Both the position numbers and the translations under genes were made by a program. DNA of 64,000 bases from Armatimonadota bacterium (lineage in GTDB: Bacteria; Armatimonadota; SYMT01). Under the pieces are notes generated by a model, which made no database searches, was not told the origin of the DNA, and saw nothing but the letters and a program-made list of their open reading frames with translations. This document shows, piece after piece, positions 60,027 through 63,846 of this stretch; position 1 is the first letter of the stretch; every line of letters begins with the position of its first letter. The stretch covers positions 1-64,000 of the forward strand of contig JBKBRF010000024.1 of NCBI GenBank assembly GCA_046292385.1, written 5' to 3'.

Positions 60027-60410
60027 CTAAGGCTCTCCCGGTCGAGATCGCTCGGCAGCCGCGGCCGCGGGAGGAGCGGGAGCGCCCTCTTCGGGTGCGG
60101 ACGTGATCTTCAGCCCCACGATCCCGGCCGCGATCAGCCCGATACAGAGGAGCCGCGACGCATGGTGAGGCTCATCGAGCACGACGATCCCGAAGATCAC
60201 CGTGCCGACGGCGCCGATTCCCGTCCATACGGCGTAAGCGGTGCCGACCGGCAGCTCTCGGATGGCGAGCGCGAGCAGGTAGACGCTCGCGCCCATGCAG
60301 GCGAGGGTGCCGACCGTCGGCCAGAAGCGGGTGAAGCCGGCGGTGTACTTCAGACCCACCGCCCAGCCGATCTCGAGCAGCCCCGCCAAAACAAGAATGA
60401 CCCACGCCAT
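60027..60410 (-). CDS. gdx: SMR-family guanidinium exporter Gdx/SugE
   Basis: MAWVILVLAGLLEIGWAVGLKYT.GF, LPVGTAYAVWTGIG; riboswitch upstream. Confidence 0.93.
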   Translation of the reverse strand: MAWVILVLAGLLEIGWAVGLKYTAGFTRFWPTVGTLACMGASVYLLALAIRELPVGTAYAVWTGIGAVGTVIFGIVVLDEPHHASRLLCIGLIAAGIVGLKITSAPEEGAPAPPAAAAAERSRPGEP

Positions 60411-60428: not shown

Positions 60429-60478
60429 GAAGGGGTCGTCCCCTTCGAAAGAGCAGCACACGCTGGGTCGTCCCAACG
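60429..60478 (-). ncRNA. guanidine-II (mini-ykkC) riboswitch
   Basis: Two hairpins with ACGA tetraloops (CGTTGGG-ACGA-CCCAGCG; GAAGGGG-ACGA-CCCCTTC) just before the GGAGGA RBS of gdx. Confidence 0.92.
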
Positions 60479-60541
60479 GAGCCAAAAGGCTAACGGATGG
60501 TAGTTGCCGAGGTGGACGGTCTGCCTGCCTCTGCTCCGCGG

Positions 60542-60571
60542 AGGATAACCGCGCAGGAGCAGGACTGTCAA
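60542..60571 (-). promoter_or_regulatory. sigma70-type promoter for gdx
   Basis: TTGACA-N18-TATCCT on the minus strand. Confidence 0.6.
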
Positions 60572-60596
60572 GCTCGCGCGCCCGGTACCGGTTCGA

Positions 60597-60625
60597 TTGA
60601 CAGGCCGGAGCGGCTTCGATATAGT
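60597..60625 (+). promoter_or_regulatory. strong sigma70 promoter of the tRNA locus
   Basis: TTGACA-N17-TATAGT. Confidence 0.8.
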
Positions 60626-60715
60626 AATCTACGGTTCTACCCCGCTTGGTTGAGGGGGGCGAGACCAGATTCTACCGTTGATGTCCAGGCACAAAAGCCC
60701 GGTAGAAGCTACCAC

Positions 60716-60750
60716 GCGGGAGTAGTTCAGTGGTAGAACGTCAGCTTCCC
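60716..60750 (+). tRNA. 5' half of tRNA-Gly (CCC), interrupted in the anticodon loop
   Basis: GCGGGAG TA GTTC AGTGGTA GAAC G TCAGC TTCCC gives acceptor 5' strand, D arm, anticodon 5' strand and loop; the expected AAGCTGA...GTTCGA...CTCCCGC is absent. Confidence 0.85.
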
Positions 60751-60901
60751 CGCAATATCGCCCGAGGGAAGGGCGGTAGTGTTGGCGAAAGCACGGCGAA
60801 TGGGCGGTAGAGTCGCCCCTCCGGAACGGTCGAGATAACCCATAGATTCGGAAGAGAGGCCCTCTTCTCCATGGCGCAGAGCCCGGAGATGGAGGGCTAT
60901 T

Positions 60902-61954
60902 GTGTTTCTCAGTGACGCCGTTCACGACTACCTGCTCTACCTGCAGCACGAGCAGAACGCTTCCCCGCAGACCGTTCGCTGCTACCGCAACGCGCTCGGC
61001 CGGTTCGCCGATTGGCTCCGGGAGAACGGTCATCCCGCTGCCACGCTCGCGGACATCACCCCGCCCCTGGCCCGGCGGTATCTCTACCACCTGAACGAGA
61101 CGGGCCTCCGCCCCCGGAGCCGCCTGCGCCTCTGGACGCCGATCCGCTCGCTCTTCCGGATGCTGGTCGACCTCCAGGTCGTGGAGGACAGCCCCGTGGA
61201 AAAGATCGCACTGCCGAAGAAGGACCCGCCCCAGCGGCTGCTCGTCTCGGACGAGGAGCTCTTGCAGGTCCTGGAAGCCGCGGGCCGGCAGCGCACGGCC
61301 TGGAGAGCCGCCCGGGACCAGGCGGTACTCGCGGTCCTGATCTACACCGGCATCCGCCGCACCGAGAGCCTCGATCTGCGGGTCCAGGACGTGGATCTGT
61401 CCCGTCGGACGCTCTACGTGGCGCACGGCAAGGGGGACAAGGCCCGGACCGTACCACTATGTCGCGAAGTGAAAGAGTACCTGGCCCGCTGGCTCGAGTT
61501 GCGTCCGCCCGCGGAGTGCGACTGGCTCTTCGTCTATGGACGCACCCGTCGCCTCAGCTCGAACGGGCTGGCCCAGCTCCTGGAACAGGCGAAGCTCGTG
61601 GCGGGGCTCGGCAACGCCCCGAACATTAAGCCGCACTCGATCCGGCACCGCGCGGCAACCCGCCTGCTTCAGAACGGAGCCGATCTCCGCTCGGTCCAGG
61701 CGTGGCTCGGACACAGTCATCTCTCCACGACGGCGGTCTACCTGCACTGTGACGAGAAGCGGCTCCAGTCGATCGCTCACTACGCTTCCTTCCAGCCGTC
61801 TCCGCCGGAGCCGGAGCCAGAGCCGGCTCCGCGGCCGGGGCCGTCCGTAAGTCAGAGCCAGCCCGAGCGGGGGCGCCTGCCCCACGGCGGAACCCAGGGC
61901 CGGCGCTTCGTCTCCCGCTATGAGCGGTCGCAGGACCGGGGAGGAACCCGCTGA
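60902..61954 (+). CDS. tyrosine recombinase/integrase (XerC/D-like, intact)
   Basis: N-terminal SAM-like SPQTVRCY; catalytic R (TGIR), K (GKGDK), HSIR, LGH, Y (TTAVY); GGAGG RBS. Confidence 0.93.
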   Translation: MFLSDAVHDYLLYLQHEQNASPQTVRCYRNALGRFADWLRENGHPAATLADITPPLARRYLYHLNETGLRPRSRLRLWTPIRSLFRMLVDLQVVEDSPVEKIALPKKDPPQRLLVSDEELLQVLEAAGRQRTAWRAARDQAVLAVLIYTGIRRTESLDLRVQDVDLSRRTLYVAHGKGDKARTVPLCREVKEYLARWLELRPPAECDWLFVYGRTRRLSSNGLAQLLEQAKLVAGLGNAPNIKPHSIRHRAATRLLQNGADLRSVQAWLGHSHLSTTAVYLHCDEKRLQSIAHYASFQPSPPEPEPEPAPRPGPSVSQSQPERGRLPHGGTQGRRFVSRYERSQDRGGTR

Positions 61955-62337
61955 TGGTGATTGGCCGACACCTGCTACACGTCGCGCTGGCAATCGAGGT
62001 GACGGTCGGAGCGGTGACTGGACCGGACCGGGACGCAGAGGCTGCGGCGGAAGAGCTCCTGCACGCCGTCCTGGCAGATCCGGCGGCCCGCTCCTTCTTC
62101 CTGAGGCAGGCGGCCGCGATCCCGTTCGTCGACTGGCCCGGCGGCACAACCCCGCAGGGACTGGAGTGGCTGAGCGAAGAACCACAGCACCTCGCCCGGG
62201 TTTTCGCGCGGCTATCCCCGGAGACGCGGGCGGCGCTCCCGTCAGAGGATGAGCACCAGAGCGAGGACGAACTCGATGCCTTCTACGCCGCCTTTCGCGC
62301 CCGCTTCATGAGCATCGAGGTGACGATCATGGAGTAA
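61954..62337 (+). CDS. hypothetical protein translationally coupled to the integrase
   Basis: TGATG overlap; GGAGGA RBS. Confidence 0.65.
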   Translation: MVIGRHLLHVALAIEVTVGAVTGPDRDAEAAAEELLHAVLADPAARSFFLRQAAAIPFVDWPGGTTPQGLEWLSEEPQHLARVFARLSPETRAALPSEDEHQSEDELDAFYAAFRARFMSIEVTIME

Positions 62338-62563
62338 GCCGGCTGGGGGTGGAGCCGGTCCGGATCAGTGTTCTCTCCCGATCGGCCCACCCCGACAGCA
62401 CTGTGAGGTTACCGGTGCTACGTCGGTGCGTGACTGGTAGAGCTCGGGGACGGGCGCGGGCGCTCTAAGGAAGCCGAAAAACCCGTTTCGTATCACGAGG
62501 ACCCCATGGGGATGGAAGAGGGGGACGGCTTCTAATTGAGCCCACCCCCCTCTGTTTCCAGGG

Positions 62564-63384
62564 TCAGCTCTGCGCGGCAGGATCCGCTACGCACTCCGAC
62601 ACGACCTGATGGAGCGGGATCCGTTCCTGCACGTCGAGTTGCCGCTGAAGCGCGAGGTCCAGCGTCCTCACCTGTGCGAAGATCAGTTGAACGCGTTGGT
62701 GGCGGCCTCTGCGCACCTGGAGAAGCCCATCACCGTCCCATGGCGTGGGCCCTGCTGCTGACCCAAGTCGCCATCGGCATCCGCGTGAGTGAGCTTCTGA
62801 AGCTGACGGTAGCTGATCTCAACTTCGAGCAGCGCGTGGTCAAGATCCGGCTCGGCAAGGGCGGCAAGAGCCGAGAGGTGCCCCTGGGCGAGCGCACGGT
62901 GACTGCGCTGCGAGAGTGGTTGCACGTGCGTGAGCTGTGGCTGGCAACCCGCAATGGAGATCGGCGCGTACGCAGCAGCGTGCCGCAAGGGCTGTGGCTC
63001 GCCGATCGGAGCCGAGGTCTTTCCGTAGCGGCTGTGTCGGGCCTGCTGGACGAGGTGTGTTTCCACGCACATGTCGAGGTGCGGATCCGCATCCACGACT
63101 TGCGGGCGCTCACCGCGCAACGCTGGAAGCGGGATGGCGTTCCGATGGAGGTGATCCAGACCTGGCTCGGCCACTCGGACCCGGGCACCACGAAGGTGTA
63201 TGTGCGAAGCGCCTGTGCCGATACCCGGGAATGGGCACGGCGTTGTGACCTCCCGCTGACGCCCGAACAGGGTCGAGCTGCACCGAGCCGTCCTCCAGTC
63301 GGCCAGACCGAGGCCCCACCGGCTGCGCCAGAGCCCAATCGTCCGGAGCGTCGCTGGAACCACTCGACCTGCTGGAGATGCTGA
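62564..63384 (+). pseudogene. truncated, frameshifted tyrosine recombinase
   Basis: Frame from 62564 (SALRGRIRYALRHDLMERDPFLHVELP...EKP) shifts -1 at about 62728 into GIRVSE, GKGGK, HDLR, LGH, TKVY; upstream TGA at 62537. Confidence 0.8.
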
Positions 63385-63846
63385 CGGAGCTTCAACGGCT
63401 GGAGGAGCGTTATCCCCTGCTGCGACTGCTCCGGACGGGAAGTGTTCAGATCTCGACCCGAACGACCGCGACTTGACCAGCGCCGGTGCTTCCCAGTTGG
63501 ACAACTCCCTCGTCGTCACCATCGGCTGGTAGCGGTGTTCTCAGATCCAGGCGCTGGGAACCCCTTCATTCGGCAAGCTGCCTAAATCCGGTTCGTCGAC
63601 GGGCCCGGCGGAGCTCGGCTCCACGGGCTGGAGTGGCTCTGAGACGAGCAGCAGCGCCTCGCCGGCGTTCTTGCTCGGCCGTTCCCAAGGCTCGAGCCGC
63701 ACTCCGTCCCGTCGAAGAGTACGACAGCCACGGCGGACTCGATACCTTCTATTAGGCCTCTCGCGCTTCCTATGTCAACGTGGGGGGTATCCTTCGCCGA
63801 AGGCACTCCGCTGTCTGGTGTTGGAGCCACGGGGAGCCACACCAGC

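Follow-up and report, generated by a model that had tools for sequence, protein, structure and literature searches.

The stretch analyzed here (the window) comprises 64,000 nt, namely positions 1 to 64,000 of contig JBKBRF010000024.1 (hereafter C24, 102,818 bp), from the draft assembly GCA_046292385.1 of an Armatimonadota bacterium (G000; 7.04 Mb in 91 contigs, estimated contamination 2.9%). Near the right end of the window lies a glycine tRNA gene, tRNA-Gly(CCC), that is interrupted at the anticodon and followed by a tyrosine integrase gene, int1. The promoter-like site P1 (11 of 12 matches, against a mean of 0.1 sites in shuffled sequences) and a leader precede the fragment GCGGGAGTAGTTCAGTGGTAGAACGTCAGCTTCCC, which comprises the acceptor strand, the D arm, the 5' strand of the anticodon stem and TT-CCC. 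The fragment is intergenic, and from position 60751 onward the sequence is not tRNA-like. ARAGORN called no tRNA anywhere on C24, the window included, and the 35-nt half gave no tRNA match in Rfam, even at E ≤ 10. A preliminary description, made from the letters of the window alone, had reported a consensus promoter, a 35-nt 5' half ending at the CCC anticodon, non-tRNA DNA and, 151 nt after the half, an intact tyrosine recombinase; all of these were recovered in the same places, the recombinase as an open reading frame (ORF) with the PF00589 domain.

Has the cell then lost this tRNA? Among the 58 tRNA genes called by ARAGORN in G000 there is a sole intact tRNA-Gly(CCC), located on another contig, C7; tRNA-Gly(UCC) is likewise encoded in the genome. 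The intact gene and the fragment in the window share an exact repeat of 39 bp, made up of 35 tRNA nt and the 4 nt upstream of the tRNA, and the identity ends right after the anticodon. Both copies are preceded by a TTGACA promoter (P1 and, on C7, P2) and a leader of ~ 90 nt; promoters and leaders alike are clearly homologous but diverged (82% identity over 95 nt including the repeat), and the sequences 3' of the anticodon are unrelated. The same long-leader layout occurs at tRNA-Gly(CCC) in the relatives G004 and G002. The region 3' of the intact tRNA, with its terminator, is homologous to its counterpart in G001 and G004, which fits a host origin of this side. Searches of all 91 contigs with exact 15-mers and blastn-short detected no lone or second 3' half of tRNA-Gly(CCC), and the inventory of G000 therefore stands at one intact gene, one 5' fragment and zero lone 3' halves. 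A 16-mer match in C54 lies within a coding region and was set aside as a chance match, not a tRNA half. Thus, tRNA-Gly(CCC) has not been lost from the cell. The genome-wide tRNA search and the search for a repeat of the core that the preliminary description had suggested both lead to C7, and the 3' half that it had proposed to look for farther along the contig occurs nowhere on C24 and elsewhere only within the intact gene of C7. Its statement that the tRNA was not restored must be corrected, since the intact gene is found where the island ends, on the neighboring contig.

The link between the two contigs is provided by an insertion sequence (IS). C24 stops 120 nt into the left end of the IS, and C7 opens with 120 nt of its right end. 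Both flanks of the IS carry the same 8-bp target-site duplication, CTCGCGGG, in register, and the next best partner ends for C24 and C7 share just 5–6 nt. The shared duplication indicates that the chromosomal order would be C24(+)-IS-C7(+). In this order, the 5' fragment precedes the intact gene and points the same way, and the two copies of the 39-bp sequence form direct repeats around an island. The interval consists of 41,948 bp of C24, an IS copy of unassembled interior and about 11.9 kb of C7, in all about 54–55 kb. At the level of the whole assembly, 8 left and 7 right termini of this IS were found at contig ends, and seven pairs could be formed via a common flank of 8–10 nt. Five of the seven pairs, including C24/C7, are in register, and C54/C68 and C79/C69 are 1–2 nt off; the IS left end of C67 has no partner among the contig-end IS termini. 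One IS family interrupts the G000 assembly at at least 8 sites, and the pairs C15/C14, C44/C10, C54/C68, C69/C74, C79/C89, C79/C69 and C24/C7 would scaffold seven joins. A split defense operon (Qat or Dpd) was considered as a further link between C24 and C7 and rejected: a QatC-like gene lies on C24 and a ParB-like gene on C7, with no common system shown.

Taken together, the arrangement is very probably that of an island of ~ 54–55 kb integrated in tRNA-Gly(CCC) in a reversed, 5'-replacing polarity. Strand exchange would have taken place within the 39-bp identity block, and the crossover most likely fell in the anticodon loop. The identity blocks cover tRNA nt 1–35, 1–43 and 1–46 in the reversed islands (that of G000 and two others described below) and nt 19–76 in a canonical paralogue on contig C29 of G000; their overlap points to the anticodon stem-loop as the core site. 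Integration would have left the host P1, leader and tRNA nt 1–35 at the left junction, directly upstream of int1; P1 lies outside the direct repeat and is thus host DNA by topology. The right end of the island would bring its own tRNA-type promoter, P2, together with a leader and tRNA nt 1–35, and as the sequence to the left of the right repeat (P2 and leader) is inside the interval, it belongs to the island. Fusion of this 5' part to host nt 36–72 and the terminator would have produced the one intact tRNA-Gly(CCC) gene that the cell has. In ARAGORN, this hybrid folds as a tRNA, and its predicted promoter and host-like leader lie inside the island. Excision across the repeat would restore P1, the leader and an intact tRNA on the chromosome, and the excised circle would carry P2, the leader and nt 1–35 directly upstream of the 151-nt untranslated region (UTR) and int1. 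By this geometry, the tRNA would be whole in both states and only its promoter would change. Int1 would presumably be the acting integrase, and the island may still be mobile at present. Among the three options offered in the preliminary description, the supply of a new 5' half by the far end of the element is the one that agrees with these data: a complete tRNA-Gly(CCC) is found there, which that description itself had named as the observation in favor of this option. The coordinates are collected in Table 1.

Table 1 Features of the tRNA-Gly(CCC) island of G000 and of the parallel island in G274 (positions without a contig name refer to C24)
Feature	Position	Strand or location	Basis
SMR-family (Gdx-like) transporter gene	60027-60410	-	family match
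Guanidine-II (mini-ykkC) riboswitch	60431-60479	-	35.7 bits (gathering score 32); directly upstream of the SMR gene
P1, presumed host tRNA promoter TTGACA-17-TATAGT, displaced with the 5' fragment	60597..60625	+	promoter scan
Leader (~ 90 nt) of the host tRNA-Gly(CCC) gene	60626..60715	+	homology to the C7 leader
Left copy of the 39-bp direct repeat (attL identity block: CCAC and tRNA nt 1-35), 3' edge at the anticodon	60712..60750	+	exact identity to C7:12066-12104
Displaced 5' fragment of tRNA-Gly(CCC), nt 1-35	60716..60750	+	identity to the C7 gene
Putative island left arm and int1 5' UTR	60751..60901	+	sequence, fold
int1, tyrosine integrase, 350 aa, apparently intact, GTG start	60902..61954	+	PF00589 (1.1e-38), PF02899
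orfX, 127 aa, start overlapping the int1 stop, translationally coupled	61954..62337	+	no known family
int2', integrase remnant lacking the N-terminal part (5'-truncated)	62536..63384	+	PF00589 on residues 72-226 only
orfX' remnant, decayed second orfX copy	63532..63782	+	similarity to orfX
DUF2243 membrane protein gene, start of the cargo, extending past the window	63847-64500	-	DUF2243 match
Presumed remainder of the island	to C24:102698, IS copy, then C7:121-12104		IS ends and shared 8-bp duplication
int_C7, third integrase, 477 aa	C7:10362-11795	ends 275 nt before the intact tRNA, beside P2	PF00589
P2, promoter-like site TTGACA-17-TAGACT	C7:11952-11980	within the island	
Right copy of the 39-bp repeat	C7:12066-12104		exact identity to 60712-60750
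Intact tRNA-Gly(CCC)	C7:12070-12141		ARAGORN
Dpd island of G274, ~ 36.6 kb	C66:90564-106282 and C119:1-21023 (L066, L072, L067, L054)		join through the split dpdE

Is this arrangement restricted to G000? A search with int1 at E ≤ 1e-30 gave matches in 187 of 401 genomes of the phylum, from which 29 foreign loci were fetched, and integrase homologs following 5' tRNA halves, a possibility raised in the preliminary description, were found at two of them, in G274 (L038) and G065 (L040). In both, 124–190 nt separate the truncated tRNA from the integrase gene. In G274, a promoter and tRNA-Val(CAC) nt 1–43 are followed after 124 nt by an integrase of the int1 family (39% identity), and the intact tRNA-Val(CAC) lies on a different contig. 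The contig with the intact gene ends in an ORF corresponding to positions 16–740 of the DpdE model (1091 positions), and the contig with the truncated copy opens with an ORF corresponding to positions 746–1090, strand and frame being compatible. These are two parts of one dpdE, and the contigs are therefore neighbors. The resulting island is bounded by a 46-nt repeat of the tRNA 5' part and reads, in order, host promoter and tRNA nt 1–43, 124 nt, integrase, dpdB-A-C-D-K-J-H-G-F-E, folE2 and queC, then methylase, Gam-like, Rad52-like and RecJ genes, a promoter and the intact tRNA. A tblastn search of 38 kb of the two contigs, from which the island's own integrase gene was excluded save its last ~ 100 nt, revealed no integrase. 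This layout suggests that 5'-replacing islands are made by integrases of the int1 family or are at least found together with them. The G274 island, which has dpdA-H, J and K as well as queC and folE2, is a Dpd (7-deazaguanine DNA modification) defense island, whereas the island of G000 carries type IIG/DrmMI-like, QatC-like and MkoA-like helicase genes instead. In G065, a promoter and tRNA-Ala(CGC) nt 1–46 are followed by non-tRNA DNA and the integrase, with the intact copy on another contig. ARAGORN calls an 81-nt "tRNA-Ala" at this site, yet the identity to the intact gene stops at nt 46 and there is no T arm, so we read it as a truncated tRNA.

The other members of the integrase family are mostly arranged in the opposite way. 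At 13 of the 29 loci, the integrase lies 110–190 nt 3' of an intact tRNA (His, Pro, Asp, Arg, Ala, Phe or Val) in the same orientation; at four, a tRNA on the opposite strand faces the integrase, three of these being, by reading of the sequence, only 3' fragments from the D loop; and at ten no tRNA was found. The integrases of the opposite-strand loci L027, L031 and L042 (and L026) are close relatives, and in three of these loci the integrase adjoins the displaced 3' fragment. Within G000 itself, the C29 paralogue (46–47% identity to int1) follows an intact tRNA-Pro(CGG), and a 59-nt repeat of tRNA nt 19–76 lies 22.3 kb away (C29:5833-28224), which makes this a canonical 3'-replacing island. 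The closest homolog of int1, on contig C86 of G001 (L020, 10039-10523), is 61–63% identical over its first ~ 100 residues, where the contig ends. It follows an intact tRNA-Gly(CCC), and the 93-nt spacer between them has its homolog in the terminator region of C7, which is of host type. Judged from these sequences, a near relative thus uses this target too, but in the opposite polarity. A search of genome contigs with int1 gave two distant loci and nothing useful.

In a quick version of the integrase tree, the careful search for which is unfinished, the three reversed cases (G000, G274 and G065) need two changes and may have a single origin. Sister pairs in the same tree mix the layout with a facing 3' fragment and the canonical layout. 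The 3'-replacing cases (G001, C29 and the 13 relatives) and the 5'-replacing ones (G000, G274 and G065) together led us to a tentative idea, to which we give less than even credence: the polarity of tRNA gene repair might flip back and forth within one integrase lineage, with int staying just downstream of the crossover and always fed by a tRNA promoter, and with the sole tRNA-Gly(CCC) gene of the cell having its promoter in the island.

Could the junction have been created by the assembly? Read support was drawn from Logan unitigs (k = 31) of the probable source sample, X1, and of runs of other studies, X2, X3 and X5. A unitig of X1 with a depth of 62.9 spans 60721–61174 without differences, covering 30 nt to the left and 424 nt to the right of the junction; its 30 left letters are one under the 31-letter bridging rule, and we therefore take it as support, not as proof. 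In the X1 graph, the left flank runs to 60741 at a depth of 54.8, the integrase continuation has a depth of 73.9, and the repeat forms a 39-nt node with a depth of 170. Beyond 60750, loose ends of the graph continue into an ordinary tRNA 3' half, which the C7 copy and other organisms would be expected to contribute. A contig chimera joined at the conserved tRNA 5' half, or a binning artifact, might be suspected in a 91-contig draft with the estimated contamination given above, the more so as the repeat is a shared node in the k = 31 graph. However, a chimeric join inside the tRNA would run on into the tRNA 3' half and not into unique DNA, the 31-mers over 60750/60751 have a depth of 62.9, like the flanks, and the contig ends of the assembly overlap the IS by 119–121 nt, so that the assembly worked well above the length of the 39-nt repeat. 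The same structure, moreover, recurs in G274 and G065. We consider an artifact highly improbable, and a misassembly at 60750, which the preliminary description had named as its own refutation, is not borne out.

A more serious alternative retains the geometry and assigns the junction to an integrase of the int_C7 type (int_C7 itself or int2'), int1 and orfX being a later arrival or passengers. In its favor, int_C7 ends close upstream of the rebuilt tRNA, beside P2, and int2' (49%), the sole relative that was found for it, is close to the other junction. At E ≤ 1e-40, int_C7 has no homolog in the 400 other genomes of the phylum, its only matches in the 401 searched being the two copies of G000 itself, so that both known copies are situated at tRNA-Gly(CCC) junctions. 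On the other hand, it is integrases of the int1 family that occupy the same position after the truncated tRNA in G274 and G065, the tblastn search of 38 kb in G274 disclosed no additional integrase, and int1 is intact and directly abuts the junction. We regard this alternative as unlikely, though it deserves to be kept in mind. Clearly less probable is the existence of two separate tRNA-Gly(CCC) genes, the window copy having been killed by a deletion at the integrase-proximal junction of a canonical island and the C7 copy being unrelated to it. The canonical layout is indeed the commonest in the family (the 13 loci, C29 and G001), the truncated int2' and the orfX' remnant testify to local decay, and the cell also has tRNA-Gly(UCC). 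Nevertheless, the break coincides precisely with the anticodon, and the intact copy, found farther downstream and facing the same way, is preceded on its 5' side by island DNA and an integrase. Two further genomes have the break in the same region (nt 43 and nt 46), and one of these cases is a proven contiguous island. Furthermore, G001, G002, G004, G005 and G006 have one match each to the 5' part of tRNA-Gly(CCC); ARAGORN finds the intact gene in four of these five relatives, and in G006 it is cut by a contig end.

The remaining proposals of the preliminary description fare worse still. An excision-controlled switch, in which the tRNA is inactive until the element leaves, was suggested by the broken state of the promoter-proximal copy. 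We give it practically no credence, as the gene is whole and equipped with a predicted promoter while the island is integrated, and there is no lone 3' half for a broken gene to rejoin; for the same reason a regulated gene integrity element of the skin/nifD type was rejected. Simple destruction of the tRNA is likewise contradicted by the intact gene and by the missing 3' half.

Several points count against the proposed 5'-replacing island and have to be set beside the evidence for it. The join of C24 and C7 rests on the target-site duplication; it is spanned by no read or contig, and the interior of the IS is absent from the assembly. The three integrase genes and many housekeeping paralogues could reflect stacked elements whose inner 5' fragments were lost; no inner tRNA 5' fragment was found in the interval. 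In the family, the reversed layout is exceptional: the 13 homologs, the C29 paralogue and the closest homolog in G001 all follow an intact tRNA. Synteny with G001–G006, G008 and G023 is too scrambled to define the ancestral site, only the SMR gene and the tRNA being conserved. Finally, the read unitigs contained no empty site or circle junction, both of which the preliminary description had proposed to look for, and two exact-pattern scans of metagenome contigs for the empty site gave 0 matches. The run contigs matched to the locus showed no joints, a result that speaks neither for nor against excision. On the supporting side, X2, X3 and X5 contain error-free pieces of the left flank at a depth of 2–6 and almost no int1, and a 192-nt unitig of X3, a soil metagenome, is identical over 60560–60750 (191 nt) and differs at 60751. 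This pattern possibly reflects island-free relatives, the unoccupied site in X3 resting on one letter.

How does the island relate to known classes? It belongs to the catalogued, rare class of islands that displace a 5' fragment. Zhao and Williams are said to have used the term "reversed target orientation" in 2002 for islands with a displaced 5' fragment of a tRNA gene (tDNA), their element reportedly being that of Mesorhizobium loti. The Islander description lists a 5' fragment in 159 of 3919 islands and a 3' fragment in 3760 (its Table 1), uses filters to define the island configuration and includes an anticodon-centered class of sites. As given there, its criteria comprise a full tDNA and a cognate end fragment in the same replicon and orientation, a PF00589 integrase other than Xer or integron integrases, a length of 2–200 kb and no overlap with a conserved coding domain. 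In G000, the full tDNA on C7 is accompanied by an end fragment of nt 1–35 with 4 identical upstream nt; this 5' fragment is intergenic, precedes the full tDNA on the same strand and shares a replicon with it by way of the proposed IS join. The length is within the range of 2–200 kb. Int1, int2' and int_C7, all inside the interval, carry PF00589 and score under the curated NCBIfam cutoffs for XerC/XerD and for integron integrases; int1, which has an N-terminal SAM-like domain, reaches 208.6 bits with the XerC model, whose cutoff is 335. With the 5'-fragment class the G000 island shares a full tRNA and, upstream of it and equally oriented, a 5' fragment, the two enclosing an island with an integrase; the site is again anticodon-centered, and the promoter-side part would come from the island rather than from the host. 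It differs from that class in that the host lineage, the target tRNA-Gly(CCC) and the integrase are new, and in that an IS divides the island, which is large and contains three integrase genes.

Compared with the canonical C29 island, the integrase belongs to the same family and lies at a similar distance (110–190 nt) 3' of tRNA sequence in the same orientation, and the D-arm/anticodon region is common to both identity blocks (nt 19–76 versus nt 1–35). However, C29 has the intact tRNA beside int and the 59-nt 3' fragment far from it, whereas in the window the 5' fragment adjoins int. A canonical 3'-replacing island was accordingly rejected for the window, the integrase-side junction being a 5' fragment and no 3' fragment being present in the assembly. 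Split tRNA genes joined in trans were rejected as well, in view of the lack of a lone 3' half.

The apparent oddity of a promoter-proximal broken tRNA is thereby settled, with no need for an excision switch, and the G000 island and the contiguous Dpd island of G274 add well-documented bacterial cases of the rare reversed polarity. They come from a poorly studied phylum, and their integrase relatives are mostly canonical, which makes them useful for studying the evolution of attP polarity. Island finders and annotators that consider 3' fragments only, or that proceed contig by contig, will miss such islands and may list the displaced 5' half among broken tRNAs.

The layout is also a natural test case for promoter switching in integrase control. 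A scan for terminator-like sites on the + strand between P1 and int1 was negative, and it is plausible that the tRNA promoter reads into int1, whose transcription would start from P1 or, in the circle, from P2. The region 60751–60925 folds with a minimum free energy of −71.2 kcal/mol (z −2.38), and a hairpin at ~ 60858–60897 covers the GGAGG ribosome-binding site (60891–60895) before the GTG start, which in the alignment matches the ATG start of the homolog in G001. A comparable situation is described for ICEKp1 (PMC13023037; Liu et al., Nucleic Acids Res 2026): in the integrated state, int lies behind the host tRNA-Asn promoter and a stem-loop in the 5' UTR attenuates full-length transcripts, and after excision a promoter at the 3' end of the element takes over. 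Likewise, in G000 a UTR with a strong hairpin lies between P1 and int1, toward which P1 is directed, and circularization would put P2 in the place of P1. In contrast to G000, where the upstream unit is a truncated tRNA, ICEKp1 as described follows an intact tRNA-Asn in canonical polarity; in G000, moreover, the predicted 3'-end promoter is itself a tRNA promoter. If the polarity does flip as tentatively proposed above, int would be fed by the host tRNA promoter when integrated and by the island's captured one in the circle, damped by the hairpin over the ribosome-binding site. Between the junction and int1, GGGCGGTAG occurs twice (60772–60780 and 60803–60811), 31 nt apart, and the leader contains CGGTAGAA/TTCTACCG motifs; these repeats are possible candidates for protein binding.

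The rest of the island appears to have a mixed history. OrfX has no Pfam or NCBIfam match and no homolog in the fetched loci or elsewhere in G000 save the local remnant at 63532–63687. This second copy, orfX', retains 69% nucleotide identity to orfX (63564–63766 versus 62097–62300) and 58% amino acid identity over 52 residues. Int2' is similar to int_C7 in two segments (49.5% identity over 214 aa and 49% over 55 aa). The middle of the island is occupied by transporters, sugar-modification genes and second copies of housekeeping genes, and the right part by a type IIG restriction-modification/DrmMI-like gene, a QatC-like gene, the IS, an MkoA-like nuclease-helicase gene, a ParB-like gene and int_C7. 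Mobile or defense DNA borders both junctions on the island side, in keeping with the proposed island. Eight of the 18 large ORFs in the C24 part of the island have another copy elsewhere in the genome (54–84% amino acid identity), compared with 4 of the 33 ORFs in the 60 kb to the left of the junction (at ≥ 50%). With int1, a truncated int2', int_C7 and a later IS insertion, the interval is probably composite or aged. Second copies of the genes for PFK, RNase J, an MBL-fold protein, a glycosyltransferase, CTP synthase, SulP, an MFS protein and a phosphodiesterase are found within C24:67703-89635.

On the left flank, the opposite strand carries SecDF and the SMR-family transporter gene behind the guanidine-II riboswitch, which we take to be the chromosomal context. 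The riboswitch and the SMR gene are the sole part of this flank that is conserved (78–85% nucleotide identity) in G005, G008 and G023, each time with other neighbors. Elsewhere in G000, ARAGORN called two adjacent tRNA-like genes with four-base anticodons (ctct and cgaa) at C5:199142-199303, ~ 6.4 kb from another integrase homolog (C5:191883-192758).

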